DNA of 64,000 nucleotides. It comes from a virus (Duplodnaviria > Caudoviricetes). The notes beneath the pieces are model-generated. The model was not told where the DNA came from. It worked only from the letters and a program-made list of their open reading frames with translations, and ran no database searches. The DNA is taken from positions 38,130 through 102,129 of the IMG/VR virus record IMGVR_UViG_3300032248_000171; one strand, given 5' to 3'. Positions 2,136 to 38,300 of this stretch are shown in pieces (position 1 is the first letter of the stretch; each line of letters opens with the position of its first letter). The position numbers and the translations under genes were made by a program.

Positions 2136-3143
2136 ATGAGTTTTTTACAATCTGTTATTAAGGAGTTAGATAATGAATACGCAAATGTTGTGGATGATTC
2201 CATTGTATGTAAATCGTTTGTTGATACTGGGTCTTACATACTCAATGCCCTTATTTCTGGTAGCATCTTTGGTGGTCTCCCCTCCAACAAAATCACCGCG
2301 CTTGCTGGGGAAAGTAGCACTGGTAAAACATTTTTCGCTCTTTCAATAGTCAAGCACTTCCTTGACAACAACCCAGAATCACAAGTAATCTATTTTGAAT
2401 CTGAATCAGCTATCGAAAAGGATATGCTTGCTGAGCGTGGTATTGATATCAAGCGTGTGGGTCTGGTTCCTGTCACTACCGTTCAAGAGTTTCGCACTCA
2501 AAGTATCAAGGTAGTTGACGAGTATATGAAACTTAAGAAAGAGGCTAGACCACCGCTGCTTTTTGTGTTAGACTCCTTAGGGATGCTCTCTACTACCAAA
2601 GAGGTTGAGGATGCTACTGCTGGAAAGGAAACCAGAGACATGACTCGTGCTCAGGTTATCAAATCTATCTTTAGGATTCTGTCACTGAAACTTGGTCAAG
2701 CAGAGATTCCTATGATTGTTACTAACCATACATACGATGTGGTTGGCGCTTATGTGCCTACCAAAGAAATGGGTGGTGGTAGTGGTTTGAAGTATTCTGC
2801 TTCCAGTATTCTTTTCCTTTCTAAAAAGAAAGAGAAAGATGGCACTGAGGTGGTTGGTAACATCATTAAAGTGAAGGCACAAAAGTCTCGCTTTACCAAA
2901 GAAAATTCTGACATTGAAACGAGGTTGTATTATGACGCCAGAGGTCTTGACAAGTATTACGGATTACTGGAGTTGGGTGAGAAATACGGAGTCTTCGAGC
3001 GTGTGGGTAACCGTATTAAACTTGATGGTGGTAGTGTTTATCCTTCGGTCATTTATAAGGATCCAGATAAATACTTCACCCCAGAAATCCTCCAAGCCCT
3101 AGATGAATGTGCTAAGAAAGAATTTTTGTATGGCAGTGAGTAA
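2136..3143 (+). CDS. uvsX: RecA-like recombinase UvsX
   Basis: Walker [16 protein letters not shown] and MGGGSGLKY; follows gp43. Confidence 0.96.
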
Positions 3144-4528
3144 TGAGTGAAAGAATCGAGACAACTATATTGCGTAACCTTCTCTGTAATGAACCCTATT
3201 ACAGAAAGGTTGTGCCTTTTGTGAAACCAGATTACTTCAATGAAACCCATGAAAAGGTTATCTATGAAGAAGTGTGGAACTTTGCTAGCAACTATGAGAT
3301 GTTGCCAACAGCAGAAGTATTGATTATCAATCTTGAAAGTAGGAAAGATTTAAATGAGGAAGTATATCAAAACGCAGTTAAGACGATTCAAGGTCTTACT
3401 ACTGCCCCAGTCGAACACAACTGGTTGCTCGACACCACAGAGAAGTGGTGTAAAGACAGAGCAATCTATCTCGCCCTCCTTGAGTCAATCAAGATTGCGG
3501 ATGGAGGCAATCAAAAAGTATCACCAGATGCGATCCCCGCTATACTTCAAGAGGCCCTGGCAGTATCGTTCGACGAACATGTAGGTCACGATTACCTAGA
3601 GAATGGTGCTGAGCGTTATGCTTTCTACCATTTGACTGAGGAAAAAATCCCATTCCACCTAGAATACTTCAATAAGATTACGAAGGGTGGTCTACCCAAC
3701 AAGACATTGAATGTAGCACTTGCTGGCACAGGTGTTGGTAAGTCACTCTTCATGTGTGACTATGCTGCTAACTGCCTATCACTTGGTCGTAATGTTCTCT
3801 ACATTACTATGGAGATGGCAGAGGAAAAGATTGCTGAGCGTATTGATGCTAACTTGTTTAACGTCAATATCAAAGACCTTGTAGATTTACCAGAATCAAT
3901 CTTTAATAATCGTATTAACGAACTGAAGAGAAAAACACAAGGTCGTCTTATCATCAAAGAATATCCAACAGCTGCTGCTCACGTTGGTCATTTCAAAGGT
4001 CTTCTCAATGAACTATCATTGAAGAAGGTATTTAAACCCGACATTATCTTTGTCGATTATCTAAACATCTGTGCTTCATCAAGATATAAAGGAGCAATTG
4101 TAAACTCTTATACCTATGTCAAGGCAATCGCAGAAGAACTTAGAGGATTGGCAGTCGAACACAACGTTCCAATTGTCACTGCTACACAGACTACTAGGAG
4201 TGGTTATGGTAATAGTGATGTCGATCTCACTGATACCAGTGAGTCTTTTGGGTTGCCAGCTACTGCTGACTTTATGTTTGCTCTCATCGCTACAGAGGAT
4301 CTGGAGAAAGATGGCAAGATAATGGTGAAGCAGTTGAAGAACAGATACAATGACCCCACCATGTATAAGAGATTCTTAGTTGGGGTTGACAGAGCACGAA
4401 TGAAGCTCTATAATGTTGATAATGCTGTTGACTTATCCTCTGATAAAGAAGAGGAATATGACTTCGAAGAGATGGCAGCGAAACAAAGCAAAGATACTAA
4501 AAGCAAATTTACCAGTTTTATTTTATGA
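3143..4528 (+). CDS. gp41: DnaB-like replicative helicase gp41
   Basis: AGTGVGKS, FVDYLN, ATQTTR, SESFGLP and KQLKNRY motifs. Confidence 0.96.
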   Translation: MSERIETTILRNLLCNEPYYRKVVPFVKPDYFNETHEKVIYEEVWNFASNYEMLPTAEVLIINLESRKDLNEEVYQNAVKTIQGLTTAPVEHNWLLDTTEKWCKDRAIYLALLESIKIADGGNQKVSPDAIPAILQEALAVSFDEHVGHDYLENGAERYAFYHLTEEKIPFHLEYFNKITKGGLPNKTLNVALAGTGVGKSLFMCDYAANCLSLGRNVLYITMEMAEEKIAERIDANLFNVNIKDLVDLPESIFNNRINELKRKTQGRLIIKEYPTAAAHVGHFKGLLNELSLKKVFKPDIIFVDYLNICASSRYKGAIVNSYTYVKAIAEELRGLAVEHNVPIVTATQTTRSGYGNSDVDLTDTSESFGLPATADFMFALIATEDLEKDGKIMVKQLKNRYNDPTMYKRFLVGVDRARMKLYNVDNAVDLSSDKEEEYDFEEMAAKQSKDTKSKFTSFIL

Positions 4529-4935
4529 GTAAGCAAGTTGACCTAGTTAAGTATACTCAGTTTGTTGATGGCACTACGAGTTATCCTTCTAAATCTAATG
4601 AAGAATTCATTGCTCGTATCCGACAACTTGCTGAGGGTGATGTTCCCATCGCTCGTTTGATGACTGCTGCTGTAGGTCTCTCGGCTGAAGCAGGTGAGTT
4701 CACTGAGATTATTAAGAAGATTGCCTTTCAAGGTAAGGAACTGACTGAAGATAACCGTACCCATCTTATCAAAGAACTTGGTGATGTGTATTGGTATTTC
4801 ACTCAAGCAATGCTTGGGTTGGATGTTGACCTGAATGAAGTAGTGCTGACCAATGTTATGAAACTCACTGCTCGATACCCAGAGGGTGCCTTCGATGTGT
4901 TCCGATCCGAGAACCGCGTAGAAGGCGACATCTGA
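4525..4935 (+). CDS. mazG: MazG-like NTP pyrophosphohydrolase
   Basis: AEAGEFTEIIKK and KELGDVYWY motifs; usual position after gp41 in cyanophages. Confidence 0.92.
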   Translation: MSKQVDLVKYTQFVDGTTSYPSKSNEEFIARIRQLAEGDVPIARLMTAAVGLSAEAGEFTEIIKKIAFQGKELTEDNRTHLIKELGDVYWYFTQAMLGLDVDLNEVVLTNVMKLTARYPEGAFDVFRSENRVEGDI

Positions 4936-4992
4936 CCCGAACCTGTGCTATGATGGGGGTGACCTAAATAAAGGAGACCCCCTTCTGGCACA

Positions 4993-6201
4993 ATGAGTAA
5001 GAACACTCACCTAGAGCACCTAGAAGACAGCATCTTGTTCGACGGAGAACAAGGGGCCAAAGATGCGTTTGCCTTCCTAGACTCTCTCACTAAAACTTTT
5101 AGTGGCACTCAAAACAGTAATTTTAAAATTACCACCAAATGGGATGGAGCACCTGCTATCATTTGTGGTATTGATCCAGAATTTAAAAAATTCTTTGTGG
5201 GCACAAAATCAGTGTTTAACAAAGATGGTAAAATAAACTATACCGAAGATGATATCCAAGCAAATCATGGTCATGCTCCTGGTCTAGTTGAAAAATTAAA
5301 AGTAGCATTAGAATACTTCCCACAATTAAACATCAAGGGCATCGTTCAAGGTGACTTATTATTTACTGATGAAGGTAAGGATGCTAAGATTGATGGGGAA
5401 GATTATTTTACTTTCACTCCTAACACCATTACCTACGCTATTCCAAAAGGCACTCCTGCCTACGAGAAAGCTAAGAAGGCAAAGATTGGTGTGGTATTTC
5501 ACACTCGTTATGTGGGAACTAGCATTGCTTCTTCTCATGCTACCTTTGGTGTAGACATTTCTAAGTTCGTGGAAACTGATGACATCTTTGTTATCAGTGC
5601 TGAAGTAGATACTTTGGGTTCTAATTTTCTTTTAAATGCTAGAGAAAAAAGAACTTTGGATACTATGACTAGAGTTGGTCTAGCACAAGTGAAAGGGTGT
5701 AAAACTTTACTGAATGATATTTCTGTATTGATTGAAGCTAATGATTTGCTTACTGTTGGCCCTCGTCTCAAAACTTACTTCAACACCTATGTGCGGGAAG
5801 GTCGCAAAGTAAATAATGTTCCAGGATTCATCAACAACTTCAAAAAATATTTTGAGGGTGTTGTGATGAAGGAAGTTGACAAAGCAAAGATGGCAAAGAC
5901 TAAAGCAGCAAAACTTAAAAAACTTTATGATGGTCTGGAGTTGATTGACAACAACCTGGAGGCATTTAAAAAACTGGTAGTGCTATATAACACTATAAAC
6001 AATGCTAAACTTTTCTTTGTTAAGAAGTTGGAATCTGCTGATTCAACCCGCACCTTCCTTCGTACCGAGCATGGATTTAAAGTCACTGCGCCTGAGGGAT
6101 TTGTTGCTATCAAAGATGGCGCTGCCACTAAGCTAGTTGACCGTTTGGAGTTTAGTGTTGCTAACTTTACTATAGATAAAAACTGGGTTAAAGGAGACTA
6201 A
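4993..6201 (+). CDS. Conserved T4-like cyanophage protein with covalent nucleotidyltransferase (RNA/DNA ligase-like) motifs
   Basis: TTKWDGAP (motif I, KxDG), QGDLLF (motif III-like), PEGFVAI (motif IV) and TKLVDR (motif V-like), in ligase order. Confidence 0.6.
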   Translation: MSKNTHLEHLEDSILFDGEQGAKDAFAFLDSLTKTFSGTQNSNFKITTKWDGAPAIICGIDPEFKKFFVGTKSVFNKDGKINYTEDDIQANHGHAPGLVEKLKVALEYFPQLNIKGIVQGDLLFTDEGKDAKIDGEDYFTFTPNTITYAIPKGTPAYEKAKKAKIGVVFHTRYVGTSIASSHATFGVDISKFVETDDIFVISAEVDTLGSNFLLNAREKRTLDTMTRVGLAQVKGCKTLLNDISVLIEANDLLTVGPRLKTYFNTYVREGRKVNNVPGFINNFKKYFEGVVMKEVDKAKMAKTKAAKLKKLYDGLELIDNNLEAFKKLVVLYNTINNAKLFFVKKLESADSTRTFLRTEHGFKVTAPEGFVAIKDGAATKLVDRLEFSVANFTIDKNWVKGD

Positions 6202-6755
6202 TGAAACGAGTAGTCGTAACTTTTGGAAGATTTAATCCTCCAACCACAGGGCACGAAAAACTACTAGATGCTGTTAAGAAACAGGCAGGCACTGACGACT
6301 ATAAAATCTATACAGGTCACACTCAAGATAAGAAAGGAAAAAATCCTCTACCTTCTGATGTGAAGGTAGAGTTTATGAAAGAGATGTTTCCCTCTCACAA
6401 AAATCATATTATGTATGACAACAAGTTAAAAACTATTATTCACGTTCTTCAAAGTTTACAGGGTGAGTATGCTGATTTAACTTTAGTGGTTGGAAGTGAT
6501 AGAGTTAGCGAAATGGATTTACTTATTCAGAAGTATAATGGAAAAGATTATACTTTTAGAAAGTTAGAAACAGTTTCTGCTGGTGAGCGTGACCCAGATG
6601 CTGATGATGTATCTGGAATGTCAGCAAGTAAAATGCGAAAAGCTATTGCTGAAGATGATATGATTACCTTTATGTCTGGTCTTCCTGATGGATTCAAAAA
6701 AGATTCTAATAATGTAAAAAAATTGTATAAAATAGTTAAGGAGAATTTACCCTAA
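6201..6755 (+). CDS. HxGH nucleotidyltransferase (cytidylyltransferase-like)
   Basis: FGRFNPPTTGHEKL, VVGSDR and GMSASKMR. Confidence 0.88.
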   Translation: MKRVVVTFGRFNPPTTGHEKLLDAVKKQAGTDDYKIYTGHTQDKKGKNPLPSDVKVEFMKEMFPSHKNHIMYDNKLKTIIHVLQSLQGEYADLTLVVGSDRVSEMDLLIQKYNGKDYTFRKLETVSAGERDPDADDVSGMSASKMRKAIAEDDMITFMSGLPDGFKKDSNNVKKLYKIVKENLP

Positions 6756-8716
6756 TGGGATATAATTTTAGAGTAACTGACAAAGTAGAAGGTATTACTG
6801 CCTTACTTGAGTCTGATAAAACTGGCGGCGTTACGCCAACTATCTACGGAATGATATGGGATTATGCTATAGAAAAATTAAATATGGATGATATCGAGAT
6901 AGGAAATTATCTCGCTATTGATAAAACCAAAAGTGTATTTAAAGTGCATCCACAGGTTGTTATAAAAGTAGATCCTACTATTGAAGAAGGTAGTTCATCT
7001 GATAAAGCTAAAAGATTTATAGAAGCACTTAAAAATAAAATAGGTGTTGGAAATTATCCAGACGCACTTGATCGTATTGGCAGAGGAAAAGGTAATGTTG
7101 CTCTTGGTAGCATTTTTGATGTGGGTGCTGGGTCTGGCGGATCTGCAATTTCAACAACTGACCAAGAAAATTTACAAGTATTAGCTCTTGCGTGGTATCA
7201 AGCTTGTAATACTTTGGGAACTTCAACTAGTGCTGATGCTTTTAATGCTTTCGTACAGGTAGCAGCAGATTCTACGTGGAAAGATGCAAATGAATATAGA
7301 AGAGTTGGTAGTATGGTAGCTGGAAGTACTCGGTTTAAATTAAAATCTTCTACTGGATCATCTGGGTGGGTTACTCCTAAACTAGGAACTGCTAATCTTG
7401 TTGGCATTTCTAAAGTTTGTAAAATAGCACATAAAGATAAAGATTGGATAACCGCAGCGTGGAGAAATGCGGATAAATTACATAGCAGTCATTCACAAAT
7501 CAATTACAAATCATCTGATCTTTATATATTTTCTCATGTAGAAGCGACTGGATATAAATGGTTTAAAGAAAAGTATAATGAACTTAGGAAAAAACTAGTG
7601 CCAAATCCACTGGGAATAAATGTGATGATGGAGGGAAATAAATGGAATCCAGCTGATGCTTTAGCTGTAAACATTAATTCTTTTAGAAAAAAAGAAAATG
7701 TATCAAAAGCTACTACGATAATAAATGGAAACACAACAGATCATCTTGCGGCTCTTGCTGCCTACAATAATTTAATTCTCCAATGGTTTGAAGAAGGGAA
7801 TATTATTCCTATATCTTTAAAAAAATCAAGTAAATCTCCTAAGATTAAATTTATGAATTACAGTGGTGTGGGTGGAACAGACAAAATGCAAGATTCTGTC
7901 ATGGAAACAATGAGTGATATTTCCAAAGCGAAGACAGAAAAACAAAAACTTGATATCATGAATAAACTTGTAATCATTGATAAGGTAGAATATAATGTAA
8001 ACATTCTTAAAACTAAAGTATATTTTTCTTTAGATCTCAACAGGAATGGAACTCCAGATCCTTCAGAACAATTTTATTTTGATGCTAGACCATTTGGTGG
8101 TGACAAAGTAGAAGATATTAAAGTTCAACTATTGCCAGCTAAGGGAGCATCTGCTGCCTTGGGTAGAGCAGAATTTTCTGTGATGGAAGAGTTGATAAAA
8201 AGTTACAATTCTACTCATTTTAATTTTTTGAAAAAGAAGAGACAAGATGCAGTTAATTATATTTTAAAGAAAAGGGGAATGAAAGAATCCGAAATAAGAG
8301 GACCATTTCGTGCAACCCTAGAACAATTTAAAAAAATAGATTTATTTACTAGATTTGGAAAGGGTAGTAGTAATTTTTCGGATACTCTTATTGGAAAATT
8401 ATACAATAATCAGGTGGGGAAAGAGATACTGGCGGAATACATAGGGTCTATAAGTAATACTAAAGGATCGCATATAGACTCTTTGAGTGGTAAATTAGAT
8501 AATTCAAAACATTATAGAGTTAAGTTACAATCAAATGAATTTGCGAGTTTATTTGATATCTCGGATGTCTCTGAAATAATACGCAAAAAAATATTACTTA
8601 CTATCTTCTTTTATATTTCGTCTAGAGGTATATACGCATTTTTGGATGATAGTGATGTTGAAAAAATAAAAAATAGCGCAATAAGATCTTCTCCCTTCAT
8701 TATTCTAGGTGGATAA
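6755..8716 (+). CDS. AT-rich 653-aa protein, putative PD-(D/E)xK restriction-endonuclease-like nuclease
   Basis: KWNPADALAVN...IIPISLKK resembles a D...SxK active site. Markedly more AT-rich than its neighbours. Confidence 0.45.
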   Translation: MGYNFRVTDKVEGITALLESDKTGGVTPTIYGMIWDYAIEKLNMDDIEIGNYLAIDKTKSVFKVHPQVVIKVDPTIEEGSSSDKAKRFIEALKNKIGVGNYPDALDRIGRGKGNVALGSIFDVGAGSGGSAISTTDQENLQVLALAWYQACNTLGTSTSADAFNAFVQVAADSTWKDANEYRRVGSMVAGSTRFKLKSSTGSSGWVTPKLGTANLVGISKVCKIAHKDKDWITAAWRNADKLHSSHSQINYKSSDLYIFSHVEATGYKWFKEKYNELRKKLVPNPLGINVMMEGNKWNPADALAVNINSFRKKENVSKATTIINGNTTDHLAALAAYNNLILQWFEEGNIIPISLKKSSKSPKIKFMNYSGVGGTDKMQDSVMETMSDISKAKTEKQKLDIMNKLVIIDKVEYNVNILKTKVYFSLDLNRNGTPDPSEQFYFDARPFGGDKVEDIKVQLLPAKGASAALGRAEFSVMEELIKSYNSTHFNFLKKKRQDAVNYILKKRGMKESEIRGPFRATLEQFKKIDLFTRFGKGSSNFSDTLIGKLYNNQVGKEILAEYIGSISNTKGSHIDSLSGKLDNSKHYRVKLQSNEFASLFDISDVSEIIRKKILLTIFFYISSRGIYAFLDDSDVEKIKNSAIRSSPFIILGG

Positions 8717-8734
8717 ATATCAATAAAACAATAC

Positions 8735-9025
8735 ATGAAATCACTTAAAGATTTACTACAGCAATCGAAACAGAAAACCTATATGCTGGGGCAAGCATTT
8801 GCTGAAGGCACATGGGTTGAGAATACGAATGGAGAGGTGGGAAAGATTCATCGTCGTGGAGTTAACTATATTATTGCTGTAACTTCTGAGGGTAAGATGT
8901 TTCGTTCGTGGGTAAAGGATATCAAAGAACATTGTGGATGTGAAGCACCTAAGCAAACAACTGCTAAGGATAGTATCAAGAGTTTTATAAATAAGAATAA
9001 AAGAAAAAAGACCAATGACGATTGA
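8735..9025 (+). CDS. Small protein resembling the C-terminal domain of cyanophage cytidylyltransferases
   Basis: GEVGKIHRRGVNYIIAVTSEGKMFRSWVKDI; late-promoter-like GATAAATA just upstream. Confidence 0.6.
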   Translation: MKSLKDLLQQSKQKTYMLGQAFAEGTWVENTNGEVGKIHRRGVNYIIAVTSEGKMFRSWVKDIKEHCGCEAPKQTTAKDSIKSFINKNKRKKTNDD

Positions 9026-35300: not shown

Positions 35301-38300
35301 CATTTCCAAATCCAAGAATATACAATCTAGTTCCATCAGAACTAAGGTCTACAGATTGTATACCAGTATCTATTCCCGATAAATTTAATACTTTTGCAGA
35401 TGGACTTGTGTTTGTTAATGTATTAATATCCCAAGATGTTGATAATTCATATTGATAAATTGAGGAGTCTGTTATATCACTTACATATAATTTTTTTCCT
35501 GCTTGCCCACTACCTTCACCACTATTAAATGCAATTCCAGTTGCATTTGTGTTGTTAACATTAGGCCAAGTTTTTGTTGGTACAAATGTTGCAGTGGTAA
35601 TATCCCATGCAGTGGTCATTCTAAATTCAATAATTCTATTATTGCTATCATCAACAATATACACTCTTGTTCCTGTGTCATTAAATGAGATATCATTAAG
35701 TGTAGCTGCCGACAAATTCTGTCCTACGATATCATATCTTGCAACATATGAAGCTGTATCTAAATCATATGCAGTAGATAAAGCATATTGAATGATGCAA
35801 TCCCTAGTGTCTCCTAAAATATATAATTTCTTTCCTTGATCTGTTCCAGACCCACCAAATTTTAAATTTTTTAAAACTCCTGTGGTAGGGTTAGAAAAAT
35901 CGTAAGACTTTGCGCCAGTATTTGTTTTCAGTGCATATGCAGTAGAAATATCCCATGGAGTTGATAAAGTTCTTTGGTAAAATGCATTGGATCCATCTCC
36001 CATCATCAACAATCTGGTTCCCGCAGGAATAGTATCTCCATTTGAATTTACAAATGAAGATGGATTTAAATGTGCTCCAACAATTGCACTCTCTGGTAAT
36101 ACAAATGATTTATTATCATATGTAGATCCAGAAATATCCCAAGTTGTATTTTCCCCACTTAATGGCATCGAATACTGATAAATTCTATCATTATTATTTC
36201 CAACAACATACATTTTTTTACCAGAATCTCCAAATGAAAGAGCAGCTGCTCCACCAGCATCTTGTGTGCTTATACTTTTAGATTTGTTATTCCAAGCAGT
36301 ACTGATATCCCAAGCAGTTTCGACATAAACTTGAATTAATCTGGGAGCATTAAGACCAAGCATAATAAAAGATTTGCCATCTGGCATAAATCTAATATCT
36401 TGTGGGTCTGCATCTAATCCAGTAACGCTAAAACTTTTATTATCATATACAGCATTTATAATATCCCAAGCATCATATTGAATTGGAATAGTATATTGAT
36501 AAATTGTATCGTCAGTATTGTTTAAGACATATACCTTTCTTCCACTATCACCAAAAGTTACTGTGTATGGATTTGAAGCCAGCGCAGAGACATTTAACTT
36601 ATCAAAGTAATATCCAGTAGTTATATCATTAGGAGTTTTCATTCTATATTCATAAATTTTATTAGTTTCATCTCCTAGAACATAAAGTTTACTTGAATCT
36701 ATAGAAACCGTAAATGATTTAAAATCATTATCTATTGCTACAGATAAAGATCCTACATTAGTATACTTAACTATATCAAATGCTGTTGGCAAACTCCACT
36801 GAACAATCGTGGAAGTTGAAGAAAGTATAAAAAGAGAAGTTCCAGATGAATTAAATCGAATACATTTAGGATTTGGAAAAGATTGAAAGTATGAAAATAA
36901 TGTACTTTCATCATATGCTGTTCCAAATTTAAGTTTTGCAATTTGATATGAAGATGCATCTAAAATGTATAAAGAATTTCCATCTGGTGATAAAAATATA
37001 TCGGACCAAACTTTAGATGTATTTGGATCTTCTAAAAGGTGAGTTAATGAAACTGTATTTTTATTGGTAAAAGTTGCTATACTATCTACATCATAAGGTG
37101 TAGGTAATGGATATCTATAAAGCAATTTAGATGCTGATACACCATCAAAATTGTATATTTTTGTTCCGTCACTAGATATTTGCAAAGCACTAGAAGTATA
37201 ACCAGTTTCATAAAAATCATCTTTAAATGAAGTGATATCATATGCTGTAGTTAAATTTAAAACATATAATTTATTAGCAGAAACGTATGCTAGATAAGAT
37301 CCATTTCCAGAAATAGATACATCTTCTATAGTAGTTCCATAAGCTCGTGAATATCCTGCATTACTAGTTCCCCCTCCAGCTATATACCCTGCGGTAGTTA
37401 AATCTATTCTTTGAATTGCAGTAAGTCCATTTGTTGTGTTATCGCCATAATAAACTTTATCATCACTATCTCCAATTGCCAATCCAGAAGTTGTAAATTG
37501 CGGAGATACACTTCTTCTTTTTACACTTGCAGCAAAACTACTAATATCCCAAGCAGTAGGCAATTTAATTGCGGTAACATTACTATATAATGACGCACCA
37601 TCTCCACCAGAAACTATAATTGTTTTACCGTCGCTACTAATATCAATTCCAGATGGGTTTGCATATATTAATGATATAGATACTGGTGTTGATTGTAAAG
37701 TTCCTGTTGATACGTTCCATGCAGTGGATAGATTATATTGTCTTATAGTATCATTTGTTTCGCCAGTAATATATAATTTATTTCCACTATCACCAAAAAT
37801 TATTCCGCCCACATTAGTATCTGCACTTGAAATATTTAATGATATTGTGTCATAAGTAACTGAACTTGCAAGATTAAATCCAGTAGGTATGTTATATTGG
37901 TATATTATATCGTTGGTTCGATCTGCAACATACATTTTAGTTCCATCATCTTTAAATGCAAATCCCCTAGGATCAGTTGCTTGTGTATAAACAGAAAAAC
38001 TAACTGAATCATATGTCGCAGTAGAAACATCCCAAGCAGAAGATAATGTATATTGATAGACTGTAGCAGTACTCGCACCAGTTCCAAGAACAAACATTTT
38101 TGTTCCAGTTGAATTAAATCTGACTGCTTTTGGTGAAGTTGTTTGAGCTGAAATGTCTTTACTTTTTGATGGATCAGTAAGTCTTCTAATGTTGAAAGCA
38201 GTACTTAGAGTATATTGATGTATTTTTGCAGGAGCATTTGAAATCACTACATATAAATTATTTCCACTATTTCCATAAGTAACATCACAATGATTTGGAG

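Follow-up and report, generated by a model that had tools for sequence, protein, structure and literature searches.

A predicted ligase-type nucleotidyltransferase domain in the DUF6267 protein of a T4-like cyanomyovirus and its adenylyltransferase-like partner

Among marine viruses, T4-like cyanophages and pelagiphages rank with the most abundant. The DNA analysed here (the window) is a stretch of 64,000 nucleotides (nt), positions 38,130 to 102,129 of IMG/VR virus record IMGVR_UViG_3300032248_000171, and forms part of a T4-like cyanomyovirus. The subject is a gene for a protein of 402 amino acids (aa), a member of Pfam family DUF6267 in which a ligase-type covalent nucleotidyltransferase domain is predicted, together with the genes that follow it. 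Among cultured phages the closest is Synechococcus phage S-MbCM7 (Kyanoviridae), with 58% aa identity for the 402-aa protein, and megablast matched the region to none of the deposited phages. The DUF6267 gene lies within the replication block, with gp43, UvsX and gp41 upstream and gp61 and NrdAB downstream (Table 1). It is preceded by a MazG-like gene, from which it is separated by a structured spacer of 57 nt without coupling, and is followed by genes for an adenylyltransferase-like enzyme of 184 aa and a putatively nuclease-like protein of 653 aa (gene X), and by an open reading frame (ORF) of 96 aa. The 402-aa and 184-aa ORFs meet at GGAGAC-TAATG, where the stop and start codons share one base at position 6201 and AAGGAG lies just upstream; at 6755 a second TAATG joins the 184-aa ORF to the 653-aa ORF, again with one shared base. 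The boundaries of the MazG, 402-aa and 184-aa ORFs, and the TAATG coupling of the latter two, are as had been given in a preliminary description of this DNA.

The DUF6267 protein

The DUF6267 model spans the whole of the 402-aa protein. The family comprises 2,467 representative clusters at 50% identity in an exhaustive search of metagenomic data and is present in 466 phage records, nearly all of them from cyanomyoviruses and their pelagic relatives; it was not mentioned in the literature searched. The motifs of covalent nucleotidyltransferases that had been recognised in the preliminary description, TTKWDG (K49), QGDLLF (D121), PEGFVAI (E368/G369) and TKLVDR (K380), are all present in the order claimed, giving a putative map of motif I K49xDG, motif III QGD121, a IIIa-like Y148, motif IV E368-G369 and motif V K380. 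Conservation was assessed in the query together with the 150 best representatives of the 50%-identity clusters (n = 151). D121 is present in all 151 sequences and K49, D51, G52, E368, G369 and K380 are each present in 150, the sole non-matching sequence having a gap at K49, D51 and G52. Y148 and R384 are found in 149 of 151 and H170 is conserved to the same degree (149-151 of 151), and the invariant residues of a 48-member alignment include H6, H9, K49, D51, G52, K72, G120, D121, Y148, H170, K339, E368, G369 and K380. The order and conservation of the four motifs are far beyond chance, and the variable KxDG lysine that had been put forward as a possible objection to the assignment was not found. 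The catalytic motifs are also kept in the short variants (270-308 aa) of S-RIM8, S-RIM2, P-SSM3 and P-SSM2. The P-SSM2 homologue (L092, 58579-59490) is annotated with 270 aa, and the tblastn match to it begins approximately 100 nt before the annotated start, which may have been mis-called; alternatively, the gene may be frameshifted. This homologue does not adjoin a transferase gene.

An AlphaFold2 model of the protein, with an alignment of the family as input (predicted local distance difference test, pLDDT, 93; predicted template-modelling score, pTM, 0.89), is predicted to have the nucleotidyltransferase-domain fold. Structure prediction and structure search indicate, in agreement with the preliminary description, that the 402-aa protein has a ligase-type covalent nucleotidyltransferase fold bearing the conserved catalytic motifs. 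The best structural matches are the RNA ligases Rnl5, Rnl2, Trl1, REL1 and Rnl1, and all structural neighbours are polynucleotide ligases; capping enzymes were not among the matches listed. In Foldseek searches of the PDB nothing fell below E 0.027, T4 Rnl1 being third at E 0.09, and the viral structure library BFVD returned family members first, followed by a sub-threshold tail of viral RNA ligases. When the ends of the structural alignments are compared, K326 of NgrRnl (Naegleria gruberi Rnl5) lies 13 residues from its aligned end and K380 lies 14 residues from its own, which fits the assignment of K380 as the motif V lysine. By sequence, hhalign placed PEGFVA..AVKL on motifs IV-V of T4 Rnl1 (E227-G228, K240) with E 0.001-0.03. 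Against T4 Rnl2 and Rnl1, used as single sequences or as a 27-sequence Rnl1 alignment, only this motif IV-V block was aligned and no N-terminal alignment was obtained. Searches of PDB sequences with phmmer and with a profile (hmmsearch) gave low-complexity helical noise and no ligase, and a feature search of the ESM Atlas gave only unnamed viral clusters.

The model departs from classical ligases mainly in its accessory parts. A Lys-rich helical bundle of approximately 135 residues (~214-350) is inserted between motifs IIIa and IV, and its net charge is +11 compared with -7 for the core. A short natural homologue, P0091, was considered as an insert-free version of the protein, but it is core strands that are missing from it instead. 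An oligonucleotide/oligosaccharide-binding (OB) domain was not found after motif V, where approximately 20 residues, forming one helix, follow in the model. NgrRnl (PDB 5cot/5cou) and T4 Rnl2 (2hvq, 1s68) likewise have no OB domain. On the putative motif map, the DUF6267 protein also follows their order, with the Lys of motif I first, then an acidic residue at motif III, the Glu-Gly of motif IV and the Lys of motif V. The DUF6267 protein differs from both in having no detectable sequence-profile relationship to them, in carrying the basic insert rather than an N- or C-terminal accessory domain, and in its conserved pairing with a HIGH-type adenylyltransferase. T4 RNA ligase 1 (gp63, RnlA; PDB 2c5u, 5tt6), also a phage enzyme, stands alone among the ligases in showing a visible match at the local sequence level, EGYVAVMKDGSHFK versus PEGFVAIKDGAATK, in motifs IV-V. 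However, the Rnl1 Pfam models PF09511 and PF20819 give no match to the DUF6267 protein, the tRNA-specificity C-terminal domain is lacking, and the gene neighbourhood differs and contains no Pnk. Compared with the T4 gp30 DNA ligase (PF01068; PDB 6dt1), the DUF6267 protein has neither an OB nor a DNA-binding domain, and many members of its family bear a tag for the phage head, as described below.

Table 1. Genes and other features of the locus, in positions of the window
Feature	Position	Strand	Evidence
UvsX	2136-3143	+	
gp41 helicase	3143-4528	+	
MazG-like NTP pyrophosphohydrolase	4525-4935	+	PF03819 E 4.5e-8, 33.7 bits (cut-off 22); phrog_22758 and phrog_229 E ~1e-50
Sigma70-like box GCGACA-18-TATGAT with TG	4925-4954	+	promoter-like site
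RNA hairpin in the MazG-DUF6267 spacer	4944-4992	+	minimum free energy -28.6 kcal/mol
DUF6267 protein, 402 aa, predicted ligase-type covalent nucleotidyltransferase domain	4993-6201	+	Pfam DUF6267 E 4.5e-117
HIGH-superfamily adenylyltransferase-like enzyme, 184 aa	6201-6755	+	PF01467 30.2 bits (cut-off 21); phrog_3041 E 2.9e-64
Gene X, 653 aa, putatively nuclease-like	6755-8716	+	phrog_1462 E 3e-14; phrog_19894 E 2.7e-8
96-aa ORF, homologue of transferase C-terminal domain	8735-9025	+	BLASTP; phrog_395 positions 212-298
Lys/Glu-rich protein, 331 aa	9015-10010		start MTIEEFSKQLIE

The adenylyltransferase-like enzyme, gene X and their linkage

The 184-aa enzyme carries the motifs GRFNPPTTGH (TTGH at residues 15-18) and SASKMR (141-146), of which G17, H18, S141 and R146 are invariant in 35 homologues. 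It had been described as an HxGH nucleotidyltransferase; its membership of the HIGH superfamily (PF01467) stands, but the literal HxGH does not, the actual T-T-G-H being a (T/H)xGH variant. An AlphaFold2 model (pLDDT 94) has as its top Foldseek matches, about equally, the nicotinic acid mononucleotide (NaMN) and nicotinamide mononucleotide (NMN) adenylyltransferases (NMNATs) and phosphopantetheine adenylyltransferase (PPAT), with E ~1e-5 (1.2e-5) and template-modelling scores of approximately 0.6. The enzyme shares the Rossmann-like HIGH fold and the signature motifs (T/H)xGH and SxSxxR with NadD, the NMNAT domain of NadR/NadM, human NMNAT and CoaD. It differs from them in its family-specific invariant loops, GERDPD and PL..K, and in belonging to a large, mainly phage family annotated as 'cytidyltransferase'. 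In the cyanophage literature (PMC9146016, PMC10665884) the transferase appears under the name cytidyl(yl)transferase or as a functionally uncharacterised homologue of NMNAT.

Linkage of the two enzymes was examined in long family members and in 80 related IMG/VR loci, of which 47 had at least 3 kb of downstream sequence and 54 served for counts of MazG. The DUF6267 and transferase domains are fused, in either order, in 10 of the 19 long representatives examined, and a fusion of 591 aa is also on record for S-PM2. In the related loci the transferase domain was found only downstream and on the same strand. It was there in 38 of the 47 loci, being adjacent in 15, fused in 2 and 31-2,600 nt further on in 21, and was absent from the flank in the other 9. 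The functional tie between the 402-aa protein and the transferase that the preliminary description had drawn is supported by these counts, as the fusions run in both orders and the same-strand synteny is conserved. The inclusion of MazG in the same module did not survive the co-occurrence counts, as a mazG gene adjoins DUF6267 in 2 of 54 loci and lies at most 3 kb upstream in 18 of 54; MazG was rejected as a member and is regarded as a syntenic neighbour only.

In pelagiphage-like relatives the transferase is part of proteins of 600-1,130 aa that also contain a Pol-beta nucleotidyltransferase, an AAA_33/Zeta-type kinase, a PAP2 phosphatase or DUF5824. In such loci (L013:1244-1831, L013:1824-2516 and approximately 11-19 similar loci) a full-length adenylate kinase (PF00406, E 2e-37) and an AAA_33/Zeta-toxin-type kinase lie between DUF6267 and the large transferase protein. 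In a metagenomic protein of 1325 aa (P0140), DUF6267 and the transferase domain occur together with a RimK-type ATP-grasp domain and a putative zinc protease domain. The fused and inserted domains of the relatives constitute a toolkit of end-healing or nucleotide-handling enzymes, which does not settle between DNA and RNA.

Of the pathways proposed for the pair in the preliminary description, RNA repair, capping, NAD restoration and protein nucleotidylation are all still candidates. Two explanations draw on these partners. In the first, the pair would carry out nucleotide-cofactor chemistry: the NMNAT-like enzyme would rebuild nicotinamide adenine dinucleotide (NAD+) or another adenylylated dinucleotide, and the ligase-fold protein would adenylylate a small molecule or a protein, or use the dinucleotide as a donor, the likely purpose being to counter host defences that deplete NAD. 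The nearest folds of the transferase are consistent with this, as are its best NCBIfam match (the NadR NMNAT domain), the intervening kinases, which have a NadR-like kinase-plus-NMNAT flavour, and the fusion of the two enzymes, which fits the passing of a product between sites; an NMNAT-type role has already been speculated upon (PMC10665884). Nevertheless, the transferase scores far below every equivalog cut-off for NMN/NaMN adenylyltransferases (28.5 bits against 341 and 24.8 against 112; TIGR01526, TIGR00482 and others), and the module showed neither Nampt nor any other salvage partner. All structural neighbours of the DUF6267 fold are polynucleotide ligases, and its basic insert and its nuclease-like partner point to nucleic acid. 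Cofactor chemistry is considered doubtful.

In the second, the DUF6267 protein would be an RNA-specific repair enzyme, functionally analogous to T4 Rnl1/Pnk and mending tRNAs or other RNAs cut by host anticodon nucleases. The ranking of RNA ligases among its structural matches argues for this, as do the alignment of the motif IV-V block, which is best with Rnl1, the absence of rnlA and pseT from cyanomyoviruses (PMC1079782), and the kinase, phosphatase and Pol-beta (CCA-adding-type) nucleotidyltransferase fused to the transferase in relatives. Set against these are the lack of an encoded kinase or phosphatase in the module of the window, a near-universal conservation that would be unusual for a counter-defence accessory, and the fact that similarity among ligase nucleotidyltransferase domains does not separate RNA from DNA specificity. 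A dedicated role in RNA repair appears improbable.

Gene X is a third and conserved partner, overlooked in the preliminary description. The genes directly upstream of DUF6267 in S-MbCM7, S-RIM8, P-SSM3, locus L017 and many metagenomic loci belong to phrog_1462/19894, the family of gene X, and BLASTP of gene X against S-MbCM7_152 gave E 7e-4 over WNPAD..ISLKK. Invariant residues of the family are E138, WxPxD301, S354-L-K356 and N368, and the pattern WxPxD...SLK resembles that of restriction endonucleases, making gene X a putative nuclease; it has no Pfam match and, in a profile search, no PDB sequence match. Gene X lies downstream of the transferase in the window and upstream of DUF6267 in the closest cultured relative (L001:4391-6001) and in most Kyanoviridae, and its position is a local rearrangement inside the module. 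As gene X belongs to the family of the usual partner, it is not a foreign insertion. The G+C content of gene X is below that of its neighbours.

The placement of gene X after the transferase has split the latter from its usual C-terminal domain. This domain corresponds to the 96-aa ORF, also missed earlier, which matches residues 255-310 of the 362-aa S-SZBM1 transferase (BLASTP E 8e-10) and S-MbCM7_155 (E 1e-15). In other cyanophages the 96-aa domain is fused to the transferase or directly follows it, and in the window gene X lies between the two.

Capsid-targeting-like tags and the timing of expression

In T4, a capsid-targeting sequence directs proteins to the head and is cleaved by gp21 (PMC9026906). 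A comparable element is common in the DUF6267 family, in that 84 of 110 N-complete representatives have, by pattern match, an extension of at least 8 residues containing [LIVMF]xE before the conserved HLEHLED. Typical examples, MIKFGTYLIE and MKTFLQFLTE, are close to MKTYQEFIAE of IPII/IPIII in the T4 record. In comparison with the capsid-targeted proteins IPI, IPII, IPIII and Alt of T4, most of the DUF6267 representatives, and also several transferases of cyanophages, open with a tag of 10-17 residues, M-x-x-F-x-x-(F/Y)-(L/I)-x-E, that resembles MKTYQEFIAE. The transferases of S-SZBM1, S-RIM8, P-SSM3 and Melnitz carry such a tag, and purified S-SZBM1 and S-CREM2 virions are reported to contain the transferase (PMC9146016, PMC10665884). 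In the window, a propeptide of 10-19 residues with (L/I)xE is absent from both the DUF6267 protein (start MSKNTHLEH) and the transferase (MKRVVVTF), and in-frame stop codons upstream, at 4951, 4960 and 4969, exclude a longer N-terminus.

The 331-aa Lys/Glu-rich protein encoded downstream begins with MTIEEFSKQLIE, which closely matches the MKTYQEFIAE of T4 IPII/IPIII, and from this start it is likely to be packaged in the head and processed by gp21. Such tags therefore appear to be used by this phage, although its DUF6267 protein and transferase are without them.

The spacer upstream of DUF6267 folds into a hairpin of z-score -5.4, and none of 200 shuffled sequences folded as well. Base pairing in the hairpin takes in part of the Shine-Dalgarno sequence together with the nucleotides that run up to position -1 of the AUG, and the apex holds a late-promoter-like box, TAAATA. 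In T4 there are genes whose ribosome-binding site becomes accessible only on late transcripts; by analogy, the hairpin may act as a T4-type switch of translation, early-off/late-on, which suggests that DUF6267 is translated late in this phage.

The missing ligase and candidate functions of the module

Reviews from 2005-2010 onward have reported no DNA or RNA ligase in T4-like cyanophages: cyanomyoviruses are described as lacking gp30, rnlA and pseT, and the matter of 'distant homologues not yet identified' was left open (PMC2984593, PMC1079782, PMC2993671). A conserved gene with a predicted ligase fold makes this question directly testable. Eight complete Kyanoviridae genomes were surveyed (S-MbCM7, S-CAM1, S-SZBM1, HTVC008M, Melnitz and three complete IMG/VR genomes). 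All eight carry DUF6267 and none has PF01068; PF09414 and PF01653 were also absent from the five that were searched for them. The T4 control was positive for PF01068 and negative for DUF6267. Within this survey (PF01068 in eight genomes, PF09414/PF01653 in five), DUF6267 is the only ligase-like gene in Kyanoviridae. A classical ligase was not found in the window's own record either, but that record is a 102-kb fragment, approximately 55% complete, and the absence is uninformative.

One rival explanation is that of the long-missing replicative DNA ligase. The DUF6267 protein would then replace gp30 in sealing Okazaki fragments and the nicks left by recombination, and its nuclease-like neighbour may replace the missing RNase H. 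Its near-confinement to cyanomyoviruses and pelagic relatives, its position in the replication block, the absence of classical ligases from the eight genomes and their presence in T4 are all consistent with such a substitution, as is the reported loss of both gp30 and rnh (PMC2984593). However, in Stenotrophomonas phage DLP6 a DUF6267 gene (E 1.4e-119) coexists with a PF01068 ligase (E 2.5e-15). The trio of DLP6 (L098, KU682439 45000-61000) has thyX and tail-fibre genes as neighbours and is set apart from the replication genes, and the gp30-type ligase is encoded elsewhere in the genome. Strict complementarity of DUF6267 and gp30 was therefore rejected, and DUF6267 is not simply a gp30 substitute. 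In addition, a capsid-targeting-like tag on most family members is unfit for a replisome enzyme, the hairpin and TAAATA box suggest late translation here, and the closest folds are RNA rather than DNA ligases, with no OB domain. A replicative ligase is regarded as unlikely. In DLP6 the gene that follows the transferase is annotated as an exodeoxyribonuclease VII large subunit and has only a weak DUF5710 match.

The reading preferred here, tentatively and with somewhat less than even confidence, is that the DUF6267 protein is a catalytically competent, ligase-type covalent lysine-nucleotidyltransferase, forming one unit with the NMNAT/PPAT-like transferase and the nuclease-like gene X for the end-processing and resealing of nucleic acid. 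K49 would attack the alpha-phosphate of a nucleotide donor to give an enzyme-AMP intermediate, with D121, E368, K380 and R384 holding the ribose, metal and phosphates; the AMP would then be handed to a 5'-phosphate end, of DNA or RNA, and the 3'-OH would seal the break. The positively charged helical insert may act as a nucleic-acid clamp, replacing the OB or C-terminal domains of classical ligases. In many relatives the capsid-targeting tag on the ligase-like protein or the transferase would deliver the tagged protein with the DNA, and in this phage the untagged module is probably translated from late transcripts. Within this reading the replicative-ligase, RNA-repair and cofactor explanations are retained as less probable alternatives.

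Several points weigh against this reading. DUF6267 was the sole hmmscan match to the 402-aa protein at E up to 0.1, with no ligase Pfam family (PF01068, PF09414, PF09511), and the hhalign probabilities are low, at most 3.7% for the full-length protein and 20% for the C-terminal segment alone. The acidic residue of motif III, assigned by order and strand position, is Asp (D121) and not the Glu usual in ligases. The second Lys of motif V is replaced by Val/Ile, leaving a single Lys, with R384 two residues further on; both substitutions distinguish the protein from NgrRnl and T4 Rnl2. The assignment of gene X as a nuclease is based on a short motif, and the delivery of tagged proteins does not apply to the window's own untagged copies. 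Finally, we know of no ligase that needs a HIGH-type adenylyltransferase, which leaves the role of the partner unexplained.

The same Asp and single Lys, together with the predicted head packaging of many relatives, could be reconciled with a ligase-derived protein that has lost nucleotidyl transfer, for example a structural or scaffolding protein of the head. However, near-absolute conservation of motif I Lys, motif IV Glu-Gly and motif V Lys over 150 diverged representatives is expected of an active site and not of a scaffold, and a non-catalytic protein is very improbable indeed.

A more speculative reading is that of a sealing enzyme that recharges itself. Here NAD+ or a related dinucleotide would be the source of AMP for the ligase-fold protein, and the fused or coupled NMNAT-like partner would at once re-adenylylate the released mononucleotide with ATP, such that the joining of nucleic-acid ends could continue as host NAD+ collapses. 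In most relatives the enzyme would be injected from the capsid with the nuclease-like partner, possibly to trim and reseal phage DNA damaged on entry. Little probability is attached to this scheme. If the enzyme of the preferred reading is active, it would represent a new ligase family and possibly a new injected system of repair or counter-defence.

On the predicted structure, an internal basic helical bundle in place of an OB or terminal domain is a new architecture for the superfamily. Also new for it are the partnership with an NMNAT/PPAT-like enzyme, often by fusion, the nuclease-like neighbour, and the head-targeting tag on the ligase-like protein or the transferase in many relatives. 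The window presents a variant arrangement of these elements: gene X has moved downstream, and the transferase is minimal, untagged and detached from its C-terminal domain.

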